A stretch of 64,000 bases of DNA from a virus. Taxonomy: Duplodnaviria > Heunggongvirae > Uroviricota > Caudoviricetes. The stretch is taken from positions 5,853 through 69,852 of the IMG/VR virus record IMGVR_UViG_2654587728_000014, one strand, 5' to 3'. Shown one piece after another: positions 3,342-18,297 of this stretch (its first letter is position 1; every line of letters starts with the position of its first letter). Below the pieces are notes generated by a model. It saw only the letters and a list, made by a program, of their open reading frames with translations, was not told where the DNA came from and did no database searches. A program made the position numbers and the translations under genes.

Positions 3342-4757
3342 TCAATCTTTATCGTAAAAACTGCCACGCCCGGCACGGGCGCGCCGTTCCATTTCTGCCC
3401 TGACCATTTCGCCAATCAGTTTCGCCAGTTCGCGGGGATTCTGTGTAACAACGTTATGCAGATGAACATGAATTTCACCGCCAAATCCGGAGGCAACAGG
3501 CTCCCGGTTACGGGAAGTTGCAGGAACTGATGCCACTGGCGATCGTATAGCCTCCGCCACCGGGCGGGAGCTGGCCGCAACAACAGGGACCAGCGCCGGA
3601 GGCAGCGGAGCCGGAACCACGGGTGTGATAGTAATTGCGGGGGCAGGCTTACTGACCTGCGCAATCTTCCGCTCCTGCCACTCCCCACGAACAGCAAGTG
3701 CGCGGGGCAGGTTCTTAAAGACAATATCGCCGGGGCCAATGCGTTTTTTCGTCTCATCAACCAGCTTACCTGTGTTATCAGCAATTTTGCTGAGTCTGCG
3801 TAGCGTACCGGTATTGTTGTCTGTGAGCGGTTTGTTGTCTCTGGGTTTATCGCCTTTTTTGTCGTCGACCTTATCTGACGGGGCCGGGCCGGGAGTCCAT
3901 GGTTTCTGAACCATTTTCTTGAGAACCGGATCCCATTCCCACATTACAGGAGCCTTTGAAGCGTTCTCTATTTTCTTTCTCGCCCGTTCCGCTTCATCCG
4001 GAAGCACTCCGAGCTTTTCAAGTATCCACGCCAGTGAATCCATCAATGCTTTTGTTGGCGTCAGGACAAGCTCTATCGCTCCACCGAGTACCCTGCCGAA
4101 TACCTCGCCAGCACTGGTACATTTATCCAGCGTTTCCTTGCTGGACTCCATCGGTGACAGCAGCGATTTAAACCAGTTAAAGACCTGAATAATCCCATCG
4201 CGCACGACATCAAAAACTGGACCGAACCGTTCAAAGGTTTCGCGCAACGGAGCCAGCCGTTCCATAATCCCACTGAACACCCCTGCATAAAACGCCTTGA
4301 TGGGTTCCCAGTATTTCCAGATGAGAACCGCCGCAGCCACAAACGCAGCAGCAATCAATCCGACCGGGCTGAACAGCGCCCCGATAGCGCCCCCCAGTAA
4401 CGAAACGGAACCCGTCACCATTCCCCATAGTGCTGGCAGGAGCCTGACAGCATTCATTGATCCGGTCAGGAGGGAAAAGCCAAGACGCAGTTTTGCCAGC
4501 GGGCCAGCAAGCACACCAATAGCCAACGACAACGAGCCGACCGTTGCAGTCATCGCCAGCAATGCCCCACCTGCAATCAGTAGCTGGCGCGTCAGTGCCG
4601 GATGGGCCTGCGCCAGCGCCGTCACCTTTGATACCACCCGCGTGAGCCACTGCGTGACAGAACGCAGCGGACCGTCAATCAGATCTGCAATGCGGATGCG
4701 CAACCCTTCCCATGCACTGCCGAGTGATTTCAGATCGCCGTCAAGGTTGTTGGCCAT
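3342..4757 (-). CDS. tail tape-measure protein, C-terminal part only (5'-truncated, likely pseudogene)
   Basis: 471 aa with Gly/Ala-rich TM-like stretches and a C-terminal proline-rich region; about half the length of P2 gpT; frame stays open upstream only to ~4895 where unrelated sequence begins. Confidence 0.6.
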   Translation of the reverse strand: MANNLDGDLKSLGSAWEGLRIRIADLIDGPLRSVTQWLTRVVSKVTALAQAHPALTRQLLIAGGALLAMTATVGSLSLAIGVLAGPLAKLRLGFSLLTGSMNAVRLLPALWGMVTGSVSLLGGAIGALFSPVGLIAAAFVAAAVLIWKYWEPIKAFYAGVFSGIMERLAPLRETFERFGPVFDVVRDGIIQVFNWFKSLLSPMESSKETLDKCTSAGEVFGRVLGGAIELVLTPTKALMDSLAWILEKLGVLPDEAERARKKIENASKAPVMWEWDPVLKKMVQKPWTPGPAPSDKVDDKKGDKPRDNKPLTDNNTGTLRRLSKIADNTGKLVDETKKRIGPGDIVFKNLPRALAVRGEWQERKIAQVSKPAPAITITPVVPAPLPPALVPVVAASSRPVAEAIRSPVASVPATSRNREPVASGFGGEIHVHLHNVVTQNPRELAKLIGEMVRAEMERRARAGRGSFYDKD

Positions 4758-12115: not shown

Positions 12116-13035
12116 TACTGCATATCCTCCGGTCGGTTGATTTCAGGTTCCGGTTCGGTCAGCCAGGCGGGGGCATCGTTACCCGATGGAGCGGCCTCAA
12201 GGTCAAACGTCTCACGTAATGCATGAACACTGCGTTCAATCTGGCAGACCAGACCGGCCATGAAATCTCTGGGGGTATCGATCATGTTTTTGGTGCAGTA
12301 TTCACACAGGGTCTCAAAAACACTGGACAGCCGGACGGCGATAGCCGATTCGGCCTCAACCGCTAATGCCGTCACTTCCGCCCGCAATTTTTTCAGTTCT
12401 TCGTCTGGCGGCGGAGGTTGCAGGCGCGATTTCTTCTCCAGTTTTGTGGCCAGTTCGTTGATTTTTTCGTCCTTTCCGGCAAGCACCTGTTGCTGAGCTG
12501 CGTTGGTTTCGCGCGCTTCACGCAGGGCGGCCTTCAGTTCGCGGCTGGTCATGCGATCAATATCATCAAGCGTTGCACCGGCGACGGTTCCACCATCAGC
12601 TAATGCGTCGAGTTCTTCGTCATCCAGAACCATCAGTTCATATAACTTGGTTTTTCCCAAAACGCTCAGCGCTGAGCGTTTTGGCTGTTCATCTCCATTG
12701 CCGAGAAATTTCACGCTGGCCTGCATCATGCGACGAGCTACCTGTGGTGCTAATCCGAGGTCGTTTTCCAGAATATTTGTGAAATCACCATGCGGTTCAT
12801 TTTCTTTTAAGATGATCAGCCGCTTACCCGCTTCCAACATAGATTCAGCACTCTGCGCCATATAAAAACGTGCTTCGTGAACGATGCGTTCACGTTCATA
12901 AGGCAGTCCATCACCAAACTGCTGCATGATCTCCATGCGATGCTGTGTCATGGCATTCAGGCTGACGTTGAGATCATCCGACAGCGGTACATCGGCGTTC
13001 AGTTCAGTGTTAATCGGTGATTTGGTACGTCCCAT
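12115..13035 (-). CDS. DUF3102-like protein
   Basis: 306 aa, coiled-coil-rich; family commonly found next to transposases in Mu-like prophages (from memory). Confidence 0.45.
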   Translation of the reverse strand: MGRTKSPINTELNADVPLSDDLNVSLNAMTQHRMEIMQQFGDGLPYERERIVHEARFYMAQSAESMLEAGKRLIILKENEPHGDFTNILENDLGLAPQVARRMMQASVKFLGNGDEQPKRSALSVLGKTKLYELMVLDDEELDALADGGTVAGATLDDIDRMTSRELKAALREARETNAAQQQVLAGKDEKINELATKLEKKSRLQPPPPDEELKKLRAEVTALAVEAESAIAVRLSSVFETLCEYCTKNMIDTPRDFMAGLVCQIERSVHALRETFDLEAAPSGNDAPAWLTEPEPEINRPEDMQ

Positions 13036-13045
13036 TGATTACTCC

Positions 13046-13360
13046 TTACAAACGACTACCTGAAATGACACGTTGGTTAATTTCGTTAATACGATCCTGT
13101 GCACGTGCCATCTCGTTACTGTGGGCCATGGCGATCTGCAGTAACTGGATGCCCGGTGCAAAACGTCCGTTCTCCAGTTTCAGAGCCAGCCCTTCTTCAA
13201 TGAGGGTGTTGAGTGCCCGGTTGATGTTTGCCGGTGACTCGTGCAGTGCTGTCGCCAGTTCACCGTTAGAAATACCGTTCAGGGCATGACCGCGCAGCGC
13301 TTTGAGTACCCGGAGGATGCGACTGCCGGAGCTTGAAACATTCGTCTTACTCATCTGCAT
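13046..13360 (-). CDS. putative winged-helix DNA-binding protein
   Basis: 104 aa; GISNGELATALHESPANINRALNTLIEEGLA looks like a winged HTH. Confidence 0.4.
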   Translation of the reverse strand: MQMSKTNVSSSGSRILRVLKALRGHALNGISNGELATALHESPANINRALNTLIEEGLALKLENGRFAPGIQLLQIAMAHSNEMARAQDRINEINQRVISGSRL

Positions 13361-13406
13361 ACCTCTTTTGCGATATGTGATAACCTTTTACAAAGACTCA
13401 AAATAT

Positions 13407-13595
13407 TTAGGCCGCCTGAGCTGTTGATTTCAGTCCCAACTTCACGGCGATTTCATGGGATTTACCGTAACGGGCTTTGGTCTGCCCGTTGAGAACGCGG
13501 TATACCTCATTGCGGTTGTAGCCGTTTTCTTCTGCCCAGCGGGTGAAAGTGATCCCGCGCTGGCGGAAGAGAGCTTTGACTTGTTCTGCAGTCAT
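13407..13595 (-). CDS. Ner-like DNA-binding regulator
   Basis: 62 aa basic HTH protein at the head of the early operon, divergent from the repressor. Confidence 0.45.
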   Translation of the reverse strand: MTAEQVKALFRQRGITFTRWAEENGYNRNEVYRVLNGQTKARYGKSHEIAVKLGLKSTAQAA

Positions 13596-13688
13596 CGTTG
13601 TCTCCTTTGTTGATGCAATGATGTTTGCCTTATATGTGTTAGATTATTGCTCATAATTATGAGCATATCAAGATAGAGATTCACTTTT

Positions 13689-14045
13689 ATGAGCAAAGAT
13701 ATAGGAGAGCGCGTTATTTCTGTGAGGAAGAAAGCAGGGTTGAACCAGAGAGAATTTGCAGCTCGTTTAGGTATTTCTAATGGTGGTATCAGTCAGATTG
13801 AAAATGGAAAGGCGATGCCTGGAGGGGAGTTTCTGTTAAAGATGCATCAAGAGTTTAATGTTGATGTAAATTGGTTGCTCACTGGAATGAGCACAGATGG
13901 TATGACTAGAAACCAGAATCAAATTTCCCCAGAAAAACAAAAACTAATAGATACTTTTGACGACATGACACCAGACCAACAACGCTCATTTCTTGAGATT
14001 GGGCGATTCTATACTCAGCCAAAACCAGGAAAAATCGCAGGCTGA
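13689..14045 (+). CDS. XRE-family HTH repressor (c-repressor analogue)
   Basis: 118 aa; N-terminal HTH LNQREFAARLGISNGGISQIENGK; divergent from the Ner/transposase operon. Confidence 0.7.
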   Translation: MSKDIGERVISVRKKAGLNQREFAARLGISNGGISQIENGKAMPGGEFLLKMHQEFNVDVNWLLTGMSTDGMTRNQNQISPEKQKLIDTFDDMTPDQQRSFLEIGRFYTQPKPGKIAG

Positions 14046-14130
14046 TACTGACCCGGACACAAAGGACAGGTGGTTGATCTGGATGCTTTCAGAAAACATC
14101 GCCAGTGACATAGTGGAAGTTGTTTGGTTT

Positions 14131-14160
14131 ACCGGAAAGCATTGTGCTTTCCGGTTTTGT
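14131..14160 (+). terminator. intrinsic terminator after repressor gene
   Basis: ACCGGAAAGCA-TTGT-GCTTTCCGGTTTTGTTT hairpin followed by T run. Confidence 0.5.
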
Positions 14161-14161
14161 T

Positions 14162-14926
14162 TCAGAAGTTGCAGATTAGCAGTTCACGGCGCGGCGTGGG
14201 TTTACCCGCCAGACTGTAGTTGATATTCACTGTCTGTATGTTCAGTCCAGTGAACACCTCGCGCATCTGCGGGATGTCGTTCACCGAAATTATCATTTTT
14301 CCTCTGATGCACCGGGCCAGCTCTGCCAGCCGCGAGTAGTTCCCTTCAGGAAAATCCACACCATAGCCTTCCGTACCCAGGTACGGTGGGTCGCAGTAGA
14401 ACAGCGTGTGCGGACGATCATAACGCTCAATGCACTGTTGCCAGTCCATGTGTTCTATGACTGTTCTGGAAAGCCGCAGGTGTGCCGCTGACAGTTCTTC
14501 TTCAATACGTAGCAGGTTGAAGCGTGGCGGGGATGTGGTGGAGGTACCGAAGCTGTGCTCTGCCACCTTGCCGCCAAACGCCTGCTTCTGAAGGTAGTAG
14601 AACCGTGCCGCACGCTGGATATCCGTCAGTGTTTCTTCCGGGGTGATCTGCAGCCATTTGTAGATCTGACGGCTGACCAGCGCCCATTTGAACTGGCGGA
14701 CAAATTCTTCCAGGTGATGCTTTACCACCCGGTACAGATTCACCAGTTCACCGTTGATATCATTGATGACTTCGATCTTGCCGGGTGTCTTAAGAAAATA
14801 GAGCGCTGCTGCCCCACAAAACGGCTCCACATAACATTCATGCGCCGGAAACAGCGGCAGAATGTGTTTTGCAAGGCGGCGTTTGCCACCAATCCACGGC
14901 ACGATGGGTAATGTCTGCATTTTCAT
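14162..14926 (-). CDS. DNA N6-adenine methyltransferase (Dam-like)
   Basis: PIVPWIGGKRRLAKHILPLFP AdoMet-binding start and DPPY catalytic motif; probable start at the internal MKMQ. Confidence 0.8.
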   Translation of the reverse strand: MKMQTLPIVPWIGGKRRLAKHILPLFPAHECYVEPFCGAAALYFLKTPGKIEVINDINGELVNLYRVVKHHLEEFVRQFKWALVSRQIYKWLQITPEETLTDIQRAARFYYLQKQAFGGKVAEHSFGTSTTSPPRFNLLRIEEELSAAHLRLSRTVIEHMDWQQCIERYDRPHTLFYCDPPYLGTEGYGVDFPEGNYSRLAELARCIRGKMIISVNDIPQMREVFTGLNIQTVNINYSLAGKPTPRRELLICNF

Positions 14927-15116
14927 AATCTGCAAGCCTTTTACAATTATTAAAAAATATGGCAGTCTGGTCAGGTCTCGCGAGACTGACTGAACCTTGG
15001 TCGGCTCACAGCGCATTCCTGTGGGGCGATGACCAGCCCGGCTTTCGGGTGCCGGGCTGGTCGTTCTTTCATGATGCGGCAGGGATGGCGGGATTTCTGT
15101 TAATGTGGTTTAGGGA

Positions 15117-15332
15117 TTATCCGGGGCGATTTTCTGACCTTATCCGGTCCAGGGCATAAGTAATACCTTCTGCAAAAACAGAAGTATCAAACTGCTTTTG
15201 TATTCCCTGAAAATGAAAAGCGGCACGACAGACACTCAGTTCTCCGCGGTATAACCGGATAATATCTTCCAGAACATTGTTCACTGCTTCAGCACGGCGC
15301 TGATGTTCTGTTAACGTTAATCGGGGATTCAT
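15117..15332 (-). CDS. hypothetical protein
   Basis: 71-aa ORF with strong Shine-Dalgarno (AAGGAG, 6-nt spacer) upstream of its ATG. Confidence 0.4.
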   Translation of the reverse strand: MNPRLTLTEHQRRAEAVNNVLEDIIRLYRGELSVCRAAFHFQGIQKQFDTSVFAEGITYALDRIRSENRPG

Positions 15333-15735
15333 GATGCACTCCTTAAATGATGATTTTTATGTACTCACCGGCAAAATATTCTGCCGATTACTGAACACGC
15401 ATCCGGCACCTCAGGTTTTGATTTATTCTGGTTTTTTCGATATCCCGGACCAGGTTGATCACGACCAGAAAAAGTGCCGGTGTTTTATTGATACGCTGAT
15501 ATGGCTTCGGGATAACAGCTATATTCGTTACTCTCAGTTGCTGGCTGTGGGAGCGGCTGATGTCGTCCTCACGGAAAAAACGCTCTGTCTGCTCAATGCC
15601 ATGCCGACCTTTCTGCAGCCCCGGCCCGTACCATTTAAAGAGTCACTTCTGGATGCAGTAAAAACCGGTGAAAATGCAGTCATCGCTGAATGCGTATCCC
15701 GGATTATGCGTTACGTGTTTAATGAACGTAAGTGA
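15331..15735 (+). CDS. hypothetical protein (uncertain; lone plus-strand ORF in the island)
   Basis: 134-aa ORF with weak GGGG RBS; convergent with and overlapping the P-loop gene. Confidence 0.25.
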   Translation: MMHSLNDDFYVLTGKIFCRLLNTHPAPQVLIYSGFFDIPDQVDHDQKKCRCFIDTLIWLRDNSYIRYSQLLAVGAADVVLTEKTLCLLNAMPTFLQPRPVPFKESLLDAVKTGENAVIAECVSRIMRYVFNERK

Positions 15736-16439
15736 GGTTTATCCGCTGTCTGCATAATCCCGATAGCCAGTGCGAGGGGAAGTAATTCCGGGGAAACTCT
15801 TTCAAACAGCGATGCCCATTCTCCTCTCGCCATCACTCTGTCCAGCCCGCCCTCCAGTTGCATTTCAGCAATCTTCCTGATTTCCCGGAACAACGCCGCT
15901 TTGATCTCTTCATGCTCAGCTTTATTTTCCGGTGTCAGAAGGTATTCGTCGAAGAACCGGGGAGGCTGGTTAATCGGGATGTGTTCCTGTTTGCCGTACT
16001 TCGGGGACGAACAACATTCTGTTGACTGACCAGTGAGTTTACGTAACTCCTTCATGAGCAGCTCCTGATCGTAAACTGTCATCAGTGCCGCAATGGTGGC
16101 ATGCAGTGCATCGGGCAGTATCCAGGGTTGCCGGCCCGTGGGGCATATAACATCCAGCAGCTCATTCGTCCGACAGATACGCTCCTCGCCGTATGACAAC
16201 AGGCCCTGTCCCGTGTATTCCTCCAGCCTGATCACTGTGCCAGCCCGTGGTTTCTGCCATGTGCTCAGATCATCCCCACTCATACGGCGCTCACCGTCCA
16301 CGTCTGCGGCGTCGACAATGACGCTGTTTCCGAATTCCTGTTTCACCACTTCCTCTATTCGCGCCAGTACGTAACTTTTACCGCTGCCCACAGGACCGGA
16401 CACGGTGACAGTGATGACCGGATTCAGTGTCTGCGTCAT
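15711..16439 (-). CDS. P-loop NTPase of unknown function
   Basis: 242 aa; N-terminal Walker A VSGPVGSGKSYV, candidate Walker B VIVDAADVD; C-terminal 150 aa without recognisable motif. Confidence 0.55.
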   Translation of the reverse strand: MTQTLNPVITVTVSGPVGSGKSYVLARIEEVVKQEFGNSVIVDAADVDGERRMSGDDLSTWQKPRAGTVIRLEEYTGQGLLSYGEERICRTNELLDVICPTGRQPWILPDALHATIAALMTVYDQELLMKELRKLTGQSTECCSSPKYGKQEHIPINQPPRFFDEYLLTPENKAEHEEIKAALFREIRKIAEMQLEGGLDRVMARGEWASLFERVSPELLPLALAIGIMQTADKPHLRSLNT

Positions 16440-16536
16440 ATCGTATTCTCCTCTGTGAATAATTCATCGTTTATCCTGCACATCCCGTATCCCCGGCTCT
16501 CTTAACGCGCTTTAAAATCCTTCGCGCCCTGTATTT

Positions 16537-16920
16537 GTGATGCTGTCTCCACCAGATAAGGAGACACACATGAAAAAACTGAAAAAATTCATTCCCCCTG
16601 TTAAAAAACCTCGCCTCAGCGGCTGGCTGCTGACCTCAGTGCTGTTGCTGGGCACCATCGCTCTGGTCTCACCACAGCAGCTGCCTGTTGTGATCTACAA
16701 GCTGGCACTCATCACGCTGGCAGCAGTGCTGGGTTACTGGCTTGACCGTTCGCTCTTCCCCAAAGCCCGTCCCGGTCAGTACCTGAAACATGACGACAGG
16801 CTGATGGCTGAAGGGCGTTTCCCGGTACAGACCGGCCTTCACCTGGTGTTTTCTGCTGCGTTAATCCGCCGTGCACTGATTGTTGCAGCGGTCTGCCTGG
16901 CTGTTGCGATGGGGCTTTAA
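16537..16920 (+). CDS. putative holin / lysis-cassette membrane protein
   Basis: Three hydrophobic helices; first gene of the plus-strand late arm, directly upstream of the endolysin; probable start at MKKLKKF near 16570. Confidence 0.4.
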   Translation: MMLSPPDKETHMKKLKKFIPPVKKPRLSGWLLTSVLLLGTIALVSPQQLPVVIYKLALITLAAVLGYWLDRSLFPKARPGQYLKHDDRLMAEGRFPVQTGLHLVFSAALIRRALIVAAVCLAVAMGL

Positions 16921-16922
16921 TC

Positions 16923-17663
16923 ATGAACTGGCCGCAGATCACCTGGATTGTATGCATGTCCCTGAAACTGGCTTTCGAAGCCTTTCGGGTCTTCATCAGA
17001 ACCGAACGCCTGTCAGTCCGCGCCGGGACCTTTCTGGTTCATATGGCATGGGTATTCTTTGTCGCAATGTTGCTCTGGTGTGGCGGCTTTTTCAGCCAGG
17101 CATGCGCAGCACAACCTCCGCAGGCTGCGCTGCAGTATCGCGATGATGTGATCCGTAATGCCCGGCTTGAATGGGGACTGTCTGCGCCGGTGGCCGATTT
17201 CGCCGCGCAACTGCATCAGGAAAGCGGCTGGCGACCTGATGCGATCTCGCCGGCTGGCGCTCAGGGACTGGCGCAGTTCATGCCTGCCACTGCCGACTGG
17301 ATAAGCCAGTTGATACCGATGCTGAGCAGTCGTGAGCCGTTTAATCCGGCATGGGCTATCCGGGCGCTGGTCAGCTATGACCGCTGGCTGTGGCAGCGTG
17401 TCAGCGCCGCCAGTGACTGCGAGCGTATGGCCATGACACTGTCGGGCTATAACGGTGGTCTGGGCTGGGTACAACGGGACAGGCGGCTTGCATCACAGAA
17501 AGGTCTGGACAGCACCCGCTGGTTCGGACATGTCGCCACGGTGAATGCCGGACGCAATGCGGCCAGCTGGCGGGAGAACCGCCATTATCCGCAGCGCATC
17601 CTGCGCGAACTGGCACCGCGATATCTCACATGGGGAGGCAGCAGTTGTGTGGCATCTGGTTAA
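16923..17663 (+). CDS. endolysin, lytic transglycosylase (SLT domain) with N-terminal hydrophobic segment
   Basis: 246 aa; ISPAGAQGLAQFMPATA SLT signature; N-terminal TM-like helix suggests a signal-anchor-release type. Confidence 0.75.
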   Translation: MNWPQITWIVCMSLKLAFEAFRVFIRTERLSVRAGTFLVHMAWVFFVAMLLWCGGFFSQACAAQPPQAALQYRDDVIRNARLEWGLSAPVADFAAQLHQESGWRPDAISPAGAQGLAQFMPATADWISQLIPMLSSREPFNPAWAIRALVSYDRWLWQRVSAASDCERMAMTLSGYNGGLGWVQRDRRLASQKGLDSTRWFGHVATVNAGRNAASWRENRHYPQRILRELAPRYLTWGGSSCVASG

Positions 17664-18297
17664 AAAGCTGCCGTGGCGCGGCATTCTGCTGGCCATTCTT
17701 ATCAATGCCTTTCTGGTCGGCCTGTATGCCATGGGATACAGAAGTGGTCATGACTCTGCAAAGCGTGACGGTGATACCGCGCTAAGTCAGTTGCAGTCAG
17801 CATTTGACGCGTACAAAACGGAGCAGGCAACGCTTGAGAATGCTGCGCTGCGGGCCTGGGCCAGACGGTATCAGGAGCAGGTGGCCGCCGGGCAGCGGGC
17901 TGAAGCCGGTTATCTTGAGCAGATTGCTCAACTGGAGAGCCGGAACAAACAACTACAGGGGCAAATTAACGATGTCACACAGCGCTGGATTGATGAAAAA
18001 GGTAAGAGTCATCCCATTGAGTGCGTGTTTACTCGCGGTTTCGTGCGCCAGTACAACGCCGCACTCGGATATGACAACGCATCCGTCGACACCGGTCATT
18101 CAGACTCAGTTGCCGCCACTGGCACCCGCTCTGGCACAGCGACCGGGCAACCTGAAACCACTGACACCCGGTTACGCGATTCGGGTGTCTCCCAGCGTGA
18201 CGTTCTCGCCAACATCATCGACAACGCATGGCAATGTCGTCGCTGGCGGAACCAGATAAACGCGCTGCTGGATGAACGGGAAGGATTACAGAAATGA
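17647..18297 (+). CDS. i-spanin (Rz-like)
   Basis: N-terminal TM helix GILLAILINAFLVGLYAMG then coiled-coil periplasmic domain; probable GTG start at 17647. Confidence 0.5.
   Translation: MWHLVKKLPWRGILLAILINAFLVGLYAMGYRSGHDSAKRDGDTALSQLQSAFDAYKTEQATLENAALRAWARRYQEQVAAGQRAEAGYLEQIAQLESRNKQLQGQINDVTQRWIDEKGKSHPIECVFTRGFVRQYNAALGYDNASVDTGHSDSVAATGTRSGTATGQPETTDTRLRDSGVSQRDVLANIIDNAWQCRRWRNQINALLDEREGLQK
17993..18259 (+). CDS. o-spanin (Rz1-like lipoprotein) embedded in the i-spanin gene
   Basis: Starts MKKVRVIPLSACLLAVSCAS with lipobox LAVSC, then proline-rich region; in +1 frame entirely inside 17647-18297. Confidence 0.5.
   Translation: MKKVRVIPLSACLLAVSCASTTPHSDMTTHPSTPVIQTQLPPLAPALAQRPGNLKPLTPGYAIRVSPSVTFSPTSSTTHGNVVAGGTR

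Follow-up and report, generated by a model that had tools for sequence, protein, structure and literature searches.

Excludons and divergent type I toxin-antitoxin loci are made up of divergent genes whose antisense 5' ends overlap. Orphan DNA methyltransferases of the Dam family are present in the Burkholderia phages phiE125, phi1026b and KS9, in Vibrio phage VP882 and in Pseudomonas phage B3. In P2-like phages the old/tin locus, which lies between the genes for the portal protein gpQ and the replication protein gpA, is a defence hotspot (Rousset et al. 2022, PMC9122126; Vassallo et al. 2022, PMC9519451). The interval analysed here, which resembles each of these systems in part, belongs to a BcepMu-like transposable prophage that occupies about 4832-40630 of the 64,000-nucleotide stretch of DNA under study (the window). 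Escherichia phage PhiKM is 100% identical to this prophage across the region compared.

The interval contains four ORFs, all of them under purifying selection as judged by dN/dS. All four are present at the positions given in the first-pass annotation, with the qualification that 14162-15016 is only the longest reading of the methylase gene. The interval is also located as proposed there, between the repressor and the lysis genes. Its left neighbor is the HTH repressor gene c (13689-14045) and its right neighbors are the holin and SLT endolysin genes (16570-17663), of which the holin gene (16570-16920, plus strand; PF13272 E=1.5e-41; phrog_1528; RefSeq start) is the first of the lysis/late arm. 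Gene c and the methylase gene are convergent, and are separated by a terminator-like hairpin between gene c and the methylase 3' end (14131-14155; an 11-bp stem with six G-C pairs, followed by TTTTG). An Rfam scan of 12500-17500 detected no RNA family. The best explanation for the interval as a whole, and one that we consider probable, is that it is a composite of three independent units rather than one methylase-plus-ATPase module.

The methylase gene (14162-14926, minus strand) encodes an orphan D12-class N6-adenine DNA methyltransferase of 254 amino acids. The protein matches PF02086 (E=8.7e-29; 101.4 bits against a cutoff of 22) and the PADLOC MTase_II model (9.4e-112), and barely passes the cutoff of the Dam family TIGR00571 (116.6 versus 114.85 bits). 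It contains an AdoMet-binding motif of the FxGxG type (EPFCGAAAL) and the catalytic DPPY motif (CDPPYL), both of which align with their counterparts in M.DpnIIA and E. coli Dam. From sequence comparison, the true start is almost certainly the ATG at 14926 and not that at 15016. This is the RefSeq start, the sequence AAAAGGCTTrCAGATwATG at this ATG is kept in an alignment of 14 relatives, and the 90 nucleotides upstream behave in that alignment as a conserved non-coding region. The upstream region (14927-15023, minus strand) comprises the ribosome-binding site (RBS), a palindrome GTCTCGCGAGAC (14975-14986) and an inverted repeat CACAG-N7-CTGTG (15005-15023). The palindrome and the inverted repeat each occur only once in the window; the palindrome site varies in sequence between relatives, with its near-palindromic character mostly retained. 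Control of the methylase gene by the repressor was considered and dropped because the upstream palindrome has no copy at the repressor operator.

Relatives of the methylase are found at 571 or more loci at 62-87% identity, and dN/dS is about 0.07 (0.06-0.10). With these features and its own conserved upstream region, it is a core gene that holds a fixed position between the repressor and lysis genes in this phage family, and not the cargo gene it had been taken for. No nuclease domain is present in any ORF flanking the methylase (the neighbors being the repressor gene and the gene for a 71-residue protein), and a Type II restriction-modification system was rejected because there is no cognate endonuclease gene adjacent to it. 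GATC specificity cannot be assumed because the enzyme may differ from E. coli Dam at K9, L122, R124 and P134, the base-contacting residues of the target-recognition hairpin in the Dam co-crystal structure: a HMMER alignment, uncertain in this loop, has P, K, A and S (or a shifted P) at these positions. GATC counts are uninformative, being depleted equally in the prophage and the host flanks. The methylase would be expected to modify phage DNA, together with host DNA when it is expressed, and this methylation could protect the phage from restriction in the next host or serve to time phage events.

Between the methylase and the holin gene is a cargo slot with sharp boundaries. The left, core-side boundary is a conserved intrinsic terminator (15031-15071, plus strand) in which the stem GACCAGCCCGGC/GCCGGGCTGGTC is followed by GTTCTTTC, and compensatory double changes are seen at 8 of its 16 predicted pairs among 11 relatives. 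The right boundary is a box upstream of the holin gene, CTCTTAACGCGCTTTAAAATCC (16499-16520, plus strand), which is conserved in 13 relatives, cargo-bearing and cargo-less alike. This box is presumed to be a late-promoter element; its use as a general late-promoter motif was rejected because the window has just one occurrence of it. A degenerate second copy of the box (15097-15122) is found at the left edge of the cargo; its sequence, CTGTTAATGTGGTTTAGGGATTATCC, can be aligned with the box present in relatives that have no cargo. The slot is empty in relatives from Photorhabdus, Xenorhabdus, Brenneria and Symbiopectobacterium, and in 11 cargo-less relatives about 250 bp separate the methylase and holin genes. 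It holds other genes in Trabulsiella, Buttiauxella, Erwinia, Citrobacter, Serratia and a Klebsiella phage KP12 contig, and in relatives with different contents the methylase-holin distance is 1.0-2.4 kb. A 2TM effector-like protein in Trabulsiella (PADLOC E=7.5e-5) and a DUF2441 protein are among the alternative contents. As expected of a hotspot or moron site, conserved flanks thus enclose genes that are present, absent or replaced in related phages. The earlier suggestion of a cargo site holds for the DNA that separates the methylase gene from the lysis genes, with its variable contents and its absence of cargo in some relatives, but does not extend to the methylase. In the window the slot is filled by two unrelated cargo units, a head-to-head cassette encoding proteins of 71 and 134 amino acids and a mosaic protein of 242 amino acids with an N-terminal P-loop motif. 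In the literature searched we found no description of the methylase-holin slot and no relevant paper on the RefSeq accessions, the PHROG identifiers or DUF2513.

These observations are difficult to reconcile with the proposal that the methylase, the P-loop protein and the small ORFs constitute a single DNA-modification, anti-restriction or defence module. The methylase and P-loop genes are adjacent and on the same strand, the genes accompany one another in most copies of the prophage in E. coli, and the methylase weakly matches the PD-Lambda-5 methylase, among many generic MTase models, in PADLOC. However, the proposal is contradicted by the phyletic pattern, in which the methylase stands alone beside the holin gene in 11 relatives, and we regard it as very improbable. 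The methylase has a conserved upstream region of its own, the conserved terminator lies between this gene and the cargo, selection on the two proteins is strongly different (dN/dS 0.07 for the methylase versus 0.3 for the P-loop protein), and no nuclease gene or PADLOC system was found. Nor are the methylase and the P-loop protein a conserved pair, since in most relatives the methylase is present and the P-loop protein is not, and the P-loop domain is found in phages with no methylase called nearby.

The smaller partner of the cassette is the 71-residue protein (15117-15332, minus strand), which matches phrog_4490 end to end (E=7e-53) and has a Serratia homologue at 31% identity. Its gene does have the strong RBS ascribed to it (AAGGAG, 7 nucleotides before the ATG), and has a dN/dS of 0.23-0.35. 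The GC content of this gene is 0.444 against 0.551 for the prophage, and that of the cassette is 0.44-0.46 against 0.55. The larger partner (15331-15735, plus strand; alternative ATG at 15334) encodes the 134-residue protein and overlaps the 3' end of the gene for the 242-residue protein by 25 nucleotides. Originally recorded as a possible ORF, it proves to be a genuine gene: its product matches phrog_2266 (E=2.6e-44), is annotated in RefSeq as WP_000972294, and has an intact homologue at the same place in Serratia (53% identity) and homologues in P2-like phages (31-34% identity), with dN far below dS (dN/dS 0.1-0.55 here, median 0.08 in the P2 type). Its overlap with both neighbors and its lack of a recognizable promoter might suggest an ORF that occurs by chance on the strand opposite a non-coding spacer, but this conservation refutes such a reading and leaves it next to no probability. 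Purifying selection acts on both cassette genes in each of the two subfamilies.

The two divergent start codons of the cassette overlap in a CATG palindrome (15330-15333), as read directly in the sequence. The same overlap is found in every one of the 52 viral contigs carrying the family, P2-like phages included, and the small partner is 63-73 residues long at 49 of these 52 loci. A Type II toxin-antitoxin pair was rejected as a candidate because the genes are divergent at all 52 loci, not co-directional. In P2-like phages the cassette lies between gpQ and gpA and is not accompanied by the 242-residue protein; in one such phage it adjoins a type VI retron reverse transcriptase, and Fic is among the other cargo beside it in the P2 hotspot. 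The small partners of the two subfamilies have no homology detectable by hhalign, and the identity of the cassette is therefore shown for the large gene and the geometry only. PADLOC gave no match for the P2-type homologues of either protein.

The 134-residue protein may be of the winged-helix type, a reading that comes from the sequence pattern WLxxNGYI ... vLTEKtLxxLN and from an HHpred note by the annotators of phage Midge, who list its homologue as a putative transcriptional regulator. Profile searches with the family against Pfam and PDB sequences returned nothing. The pattern, the Midge annotation and the position of the gene next to the conserved holin-upstream box would all suit a transcription factor for the lysis/late promoter or the methylase gene, in which case the genes would serve phage regulation and not be conflict cargo. 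We consider this unlikely given that close relatives retain this lysis promoter region and lack the gene, that its P2-like members are far from any lysis genes, and that the protein matches no DNA-binding family.

There is no space between the two cassette genes, and therefore each promoter would have to lie inside or beyond the other gene, making the mRNAs antisense over the start regions. We infer this transcript overlap, and the timing of expression, purely from the arrangement of the genes because sigma-70 promoter scans found nothing convincing for any of the three cargo genes. Likewise, no clear promoters or terminators belonging to the cargo genes were found. The cassette could act as an either/or switch. 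Expression of the 134-residue protein would probably take place in the lysogen, where it would be an exclusion factor or a regulator of winged-helix-like type, because its gene is read in the same direction as the repressor gene and because a paralogue in Photorhabdus closes an apparent repressor operon, a run of four closely spaced ORFs of one orientation that are headed by a repressor and also encode a membrane protein and a lipoprotein. The 71-residue protein, encoded on the same strand as the mosaic protein and the methylase, would be made with them and would counteract or replace the 134-residue product.

The second cargo unit is the gene for the 242-residue mosaic protein (15711-16439, minus strand), which matches phrog_3787 and has a dN/dS of 0.27-0.37. 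The protein is composed of an N-domain (residues 1-76; 16212-16439), a middle module that is shared with other proteins (residues 104-135; 16035-16130) and a C-terminal module (residues 177-228; 15756-15911) that is 46% identical to an 89-residue Serratia protein. Another 62 proteins, 70-364 residues long, contain a match to the N-domain, and the modules are shared piecemeal. Stand-alone N-domain proteins of 70-90 residues are found in other phages, and in prophage-like and phage regions of Pseudomonas and Acinetobacter they are encoded in the same direction as the neighboring genes for recombination or for functions from replication to packaging. The N-terminal Walker A motif reported previously is present as GPVGSGKS at residues 15-22 (16374-16397). 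Across an alignment of 75 sequences the conserved positions of the N-domain are G15, G20, K21, S22, E50 and E74, with G20 invariant and K21, S22 and E74 each at least 90% conserved. A conserved hhhhE, here VIRLEE with E74, closes the third strand of the domain and, by its pattern, would be a Walker B motif. The conserved part of the family amounts to only about 75 residues (a "mini P-loop").

The description of this protein as an NTPase is unproven, with some 75 conserved residues, no curated P-loop family above its cutoff and no beta-sheet modelled. Among the curated families of Pfam and NCBIfam none scored above threshold for the full protein, and PADLOC gave P-loop noise alone (E of 0.003 or higher). 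Single-sequence AlphaFold reached a pLDDT of 39.5; with the 75-sequence alignment the N-domain alone rose to about 80, and the model has no beta-sheet. Fold searches with the N-domain model came back empty. In ABC ATPases and nucleotide kinases it is the beta1-P-loop-alpha1 region that the N-domain profile matches, and a search of PDB sequences gave the profile no specific relative. The labels "ABC transporter ATPase" and "KAP family NTPase" that members of the family carry derive from the Walker A motif alone. We suggest that this small protein could be an accessory factor that binds nucleotide and uses its modules to contact a varying set of partners, with a role in host takeover or counter-defence.

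A broader version of this idea is that the cargo as a whole is counter-defence or host-takeover equipment for lytic growth, the mosaic protein being a polyvalent inhibitor in which each shuffled module binds a different host target. The extreme shuffling of modules behind a constant N-domain fits such an inhibitor, as do the company kept by the stand-alone N-domain genes, selection that is relaxed yet purifying, and the location of the mosaic gene on the strand of the methylase and early genes, divergent from the lysis promoter region. Set against this, the cargo has no similarity to any known anti-defence protein and the gene for the 134-residue protein has the opposite orientation, so that we see this as a possibility on the unlikely side.

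The cargo DNA is present in 584 of 5426 complete E. coli genomes, and about 92% of these prophages in E. coli have all three genes (584 versus 636 genomes), which means that the genes may have a joint function. Near-fixation of the trio in this lineage would also be expected of a new type of prophage-expressed anti-phage defence or superinfection-exclusion system, and is joined by the 2TM effector-like protein in the same slot in Trabulsiella, the residence of the cassette in the P2 defence hotspot, with retron, Fic and further cargo as its neighbors, and the repressor-headed run with membrane protein and lipoprotein that the Photorhabdus paralogue ends. We nevertheless think such a system rather unlikely. 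The first-pass annotation had pointed to a comparison with defence models, and no model in PADLOC-DB 2.0.0 matches the three cargo proteins. The trio is also divisible: the cassette lacks the mosaic protein in P2-like phages, and Citrobacter braakii and Serratia sp. Ag1 have the P-loop mosaic with no cassette. Only one of the three genes shares the orientation of the repressor, and the stand-alone N-domain genes run with recombination and replication genes instead of being set apart. Searches of Pfam, NCBIfam, PADLOC, PDB and folds gave no match that assigns a function to the three cargo genes, and relatives of the cargo proteins likewise drew a blank in Pfam, NCBIfam and PADLOC. On the composite reading that we prefer, their likeliest role would be in inter-phage conflict or regulation. 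It is conceivable, if doubtful, that the cassette is a new self-contained conflict module that moves between the hotspots of unrelated phages, in which a lysogen exclusion or regulatory protein and its lytic antagonist are made mutually exclusive by the CATG overlap, and that the N-domain of about 75 residues is the smallest natural P-loop nucleotide-binding domain, acting as an oligomer.

The cargo is thus held by about one in nine complete E. coli genomes, and all three of its genes are annotated only as hypothetical. Slots of this kind are a productive hunting ground for defence and counter-defence genes, and that of the BcepMu-like phages is now defined and, by way of a cassette present in both, tied to the well-studied hotspot of P2; the head-to-head layout of this cassette is unusual and strictly conserved. 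Should the mini P-loop domain bind nucleotide, it would be informative about the minimum size of a functional P-loop unit.

In comparison with the known systems, the methylase is 58-66% identical over its full length to the orphan Dam-family enzymes of the Burkholderia, Vibrio and Pseudomonas phages, and like them has DPPY and FxGxG-type motifs and is a single gene with no nuclease partner. The N-domain of the mosaic protein resembles P-loop NTPases in its nearly invariant Walker A motif (GxxGxGKS) and conserved hhhhE, but lacks the complete alpha/beta core of these enzymes in its model and, at about 75 residues, is roughly half the size of the smallest complete P-loop enzymes. The methylase-holin slot is like the gpQ-gpA hotspot in having fixed flanks and interchangeable short cargo, and the two sites have one cargo unit, the head-to-head cassette, in common; unlike the P2 hotspot, the slot belongs to another phage family and is flanked by a terminator and the lysis promoter, not by cos. 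Finally, the cassette resembles excludons and divergent type I toxin-antitoxin loci in its head-to-head genes with no intergenic space, from which overlapping transcripts would follow, and differs from them in that both partners are conserved proteins and the start codons themselves overlap.

The interval between the repressor and the lysis genes (14162-16439) is made up of three units that are independent of one another: a core methylase, a mobile cassette of two head-to-head genes and a mosaic protein with a miniature P-loop domain. The cassette and mosaic protein occupy a bounded, variable slot. The four ORFs recognized in the first-pass annotation are real genes, as judged by their ribosome-binding sites (RBS), RefSeq annotation, homologues and dN/dS. 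Pairwise dN/dS is 0.06-0.10 for the methylase, 0.23-0.35 for the 71-aa gene (15117-15332, minus strand; RBS AAGGAG), 0.27-0.37 for the 242-aa gene (15711-16439, minus strand) and 0.1-0.55 for the 134-aa gene (15331/15334-15735, plus strand), where dN is far below dS. The 134-aa ORF is also a RefSeq-annotated member of phrog_2266, with an intact homologue (53% identity) at the same position in Serratia. The accompanying interpretation, which took the whole interval as an accessory island, is supported in part. Relatives carry different genes in the same slot, and the accessory region is therefore 15097-16498, excluding the methylase.

The window is an E. coli chromosome segment carrying a BcepMu-type transposable prophage. 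Positions 13000-17700 have 100% identity with Escherichia phage PhiKM (PQ738613, assigned to Bcepmuvirus) and with numerous E. coli chromosomes, with a match in 636 of 5426 complete E. coli genomes. Compared with strain EcPF7, the prophage spans ~4832-40630, and the flanks differ between the two, as expected since the phage transposes. Early genes (Ner-like, IclR-like, DUF3102 protein, transposase, ExeA-like, Gam and Mor) are found left of 13595 and read from the minus strand, the HTH repressor gene is at 13689-14045 (plus strand), and the lysis and late genes run from 16570 on the plus strand. Between the repressor and the Ner-like gene is a perfect 18-bp palindrome, TGCTCATAATTATGAGCA (13648-13665), which is likely the immunity operator. 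Outside the prophage, short stretches within 1694-2759 match the tail-fibre/invertase end of the same prophage type at 99.6% and 79% identity, suggesting another phage remnant upstream. The PhiKM record lacks the repressor and 134-aa genes and draws the methylase out to its longest ORF, and the KP12_2 contig (OM835952) is filed under Vequintavirinae yet is BcepMu-like in gene content (transposase, methylase, holin, Mu-like portal).

The methylase is a core gene rather than cargo. Its ORF reaches 15016 and its functional start is ATG 14926 (254 aa), as in RefSeq; the RBS and start, AAAAGGCTTrCAGATwATG, are kept in 14 relatives, and in alignments the sequence upstream behaves as conserved non-coding DNA. 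In a scan with one genome per species, at least 571 of the 600 pattern matches listed are relatives of the methylase, the best 80 of which share 62-87% identity and come from Gamma- and Betaproteobacteria. Members of the family are also found in many further temperate phages, among them phiE125, phi1026b, KS9, VP882 and B3, and in Photorhabdus, Xenorhabdus, Brenneria and Symbiopectobacterium relatives only ~250 bp separate the methylase start from the holin start. Profile searches and alignment identify a D12-class enzyme. At K9, L122 and R124 of E. coli Dam, which we take to be the GATC-reading positions, the aligned residues of the window methylase are different, and GATC specificity is therefore an assumption rather than a result. 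From what is generally known of phage orphan methylases, the enzyme would modify phage DNA, allowing escape from restriction or the timing of phage events.

Whether or not a relative has cargo, conservation extends over some 170 bp upstream of the methylase, and this stretch contains a near-palindrome (GTCTCGCGAGAC in the window), an inverted repeat CACAG-N7-CTGTG and a hairpin. The near-palindrome (14975-14986) varies by relative while mostly remaining near-palindromic (TTCTCGAGAA and TCATCGATGA elsewhere), which suggests a putative co-evolving dimeric binding site; the element is not repeated at the repressor operator. The hairpin has a T-rich tail after its stem on the plus strand and shows compensatory double changes in 8 of 16 predicted pairs across 11 relatives. 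We infer that it is an intrinsic terminator (15031-15071), which would shield the lysis operon from rightward read-through.

The other boundary of the slot is a box, CTCTTAACGCGCTTTAAAATCC, upstream of the holin gene (16499-16520), which is kept in every relative aligned; a stem pairing with the holin RBS comes after it. In cargo-less relatives the box directly follows the terminator; in the window the two are 1.4 kb apart, and at 15097-15122 the box recurs in degenerate form. The stem itself (GTCTCC-N9-GGAGAC, 16545-16565) is conserved in 13 relatives, with some compensatory changes, and may control holin translation. Within the slot Trabulsiella odontotermitis has a 182-aa protein (L015, 4048-4596) weakly matching the PADLOC 2TM effector model (E=7.5e-5); Buttiauxella, Erwinia and the Klebsiella phage KP12 contig have a DUF2441 protein and a 107-127-aa module protein; Citrobacter braakii has a 291-aa P-loop mosaic accompanied by two small genes; and Serratia sp. 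Ag1 has a 250-aa P-loop mosaic only. A second cargo site, downstream of the repressor and on its strand, is filled in Photorhabdus (L019, 5819-7714), a further relative (L005, 3419-3817) and KP12_2 (3361-3894), and is empty in the window. Its Photorhabdus contents are genes for a membrane protein, a lipoprotein and a 134-aa family paralogue.

The 71-aa and 134-aa genes diverge from TTCATGATG, in which the CAT of the minus-strand start and the ATG of the plus-strand start have two bases in common. The cassette has a GC content of 0.44-0.46 versus 0.55 for the prophage. By tblastn, relatives of the 134-aa protein (31-32% identity) are present in the P2-like Klebsiella phage ST147-VIM1phi7.1, Salmonella phage FSL SP-004 and Escherichia phage Midge, each with a divergent 63-64-aa gene and the same start overlap. 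Scanning viral contigs recovered the CATG overlap at 52 of 52 cassette loci, with a small ORF of 63-73 aa at 49 of them. Both genes of the P2-type cassette are under strong purifying selection (median dN/dS: small gene 0.15, large gene 0.08). Homology between the small partners of the two subfamilies is not detectable, and what is conserved between them is the large protein and the geometry. The 134-aa family has a winged-helix-like pattern (WLxxNGYI then vLTEKtLxxLN), and the Midge annotators record HHpred similarity of its homologue to the T7 5.5/5.7 protein; none of our profile searches (Pfam, PDB sequences) confirmed a fold. In some E. coli prophages (variants L096, 5140-5970, and L097) a solitary 126-aa paralogue lies between the 71-aa gene and the methylase, beside a duplicated piece from the 5' end of the methylase gene, which marks a second point of insertion within the slot.

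Residues 15-22 of the 242-aa protein read GPVGSGKS. In an exhaustive search the N-terminal ~76 residues of the protein turned up in 62 further proteins of 70-364 aa (33-59% identity), in which this constant N-domain is backed by varying combinations of short modules. Residues 104-135 recur C-terminally in two other members, and residues 177-228 correspond to a separate 89-aa protein at the same position in Serratia. Across 75 sequences the conserved positions are G15, G20, K21, S22, I28, E50 and E74, a pattern that by sequence corresponds to a Walker A motif and an hhhhE resembling Walker B. Stand-alone versions of 70-90 aa are co-directional with surrounding phage genes in Pseudomonas, where the gene has small ORFs around it and precedes ERF/YqaJ recombination genes within a prophage-like region, and in Acinetobacter phage regions, where it lies between replication and terminase genes; those at L009 6001-6228 (Pseudomonas) and L011-L013 6001-6216 (Acinetobacter) encode 71-75-aa Walker-A proteins homologous to the N-domain. 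In ABC ATPases, nucleotide kinases and designed P-loop prototypes, the profile matches no more than the strand-loop-helix portion. AlphaFold run with the alignment gives a pLDDT of ~80 for residues 10-70 and no sheet, and fold searches were empty. Of the earlier designation "P-loop NTPase", the description as P-loop-containing is therefore correct, but NTPase is unproven.

Since the cassette has no intergenic space, each mRNA would start inside or beyond the opposite gene, the messages would be antisense across both start sites, and either/or expression would be favoured. In Photorhabdus a solitary paralogue of the 134-aa protein ends a run of four closely spaced ORFs in one orientation, which starts with the repressor and also includes a membrane protein and a lipoprotein. 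Together with gene orientation, this points to the 134-aa protein being made in the lysogen, and the 71-aa protein along with the minus-strand genes. Sigma-70 scans of the sequence detected no promoters for the cargo genes. The cargo products may bring about exclusion of other phages, act against defences of the host or serve in the phage's own regulation.

P2-like phages have the cassette flanked by the portal gene (gpQ) and replication gene A, next to variable cargo that includes, among others, the reverse transcriptase of a type VI retron (PADLOC E=5e-104) and a Fic protein. This site is the cos-proximal old/tin locus, a defence hotspot according to two experimental studies (PMC9122126, PMC9519451). 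The methylase-holin slot adds a new case to the known class of phage diversity hotspots, and the methylase is an ordinary representative of its family, which is known already. The cassette and mosaic families are uncharacterised: they have no entry in Pfam, NCBIfam or PADLOC, PHROGs gives their function as unknown, and the literature searched has no description of them. The most unusual feature is the strict CATG head-to-head layout, which is present in two phage families.
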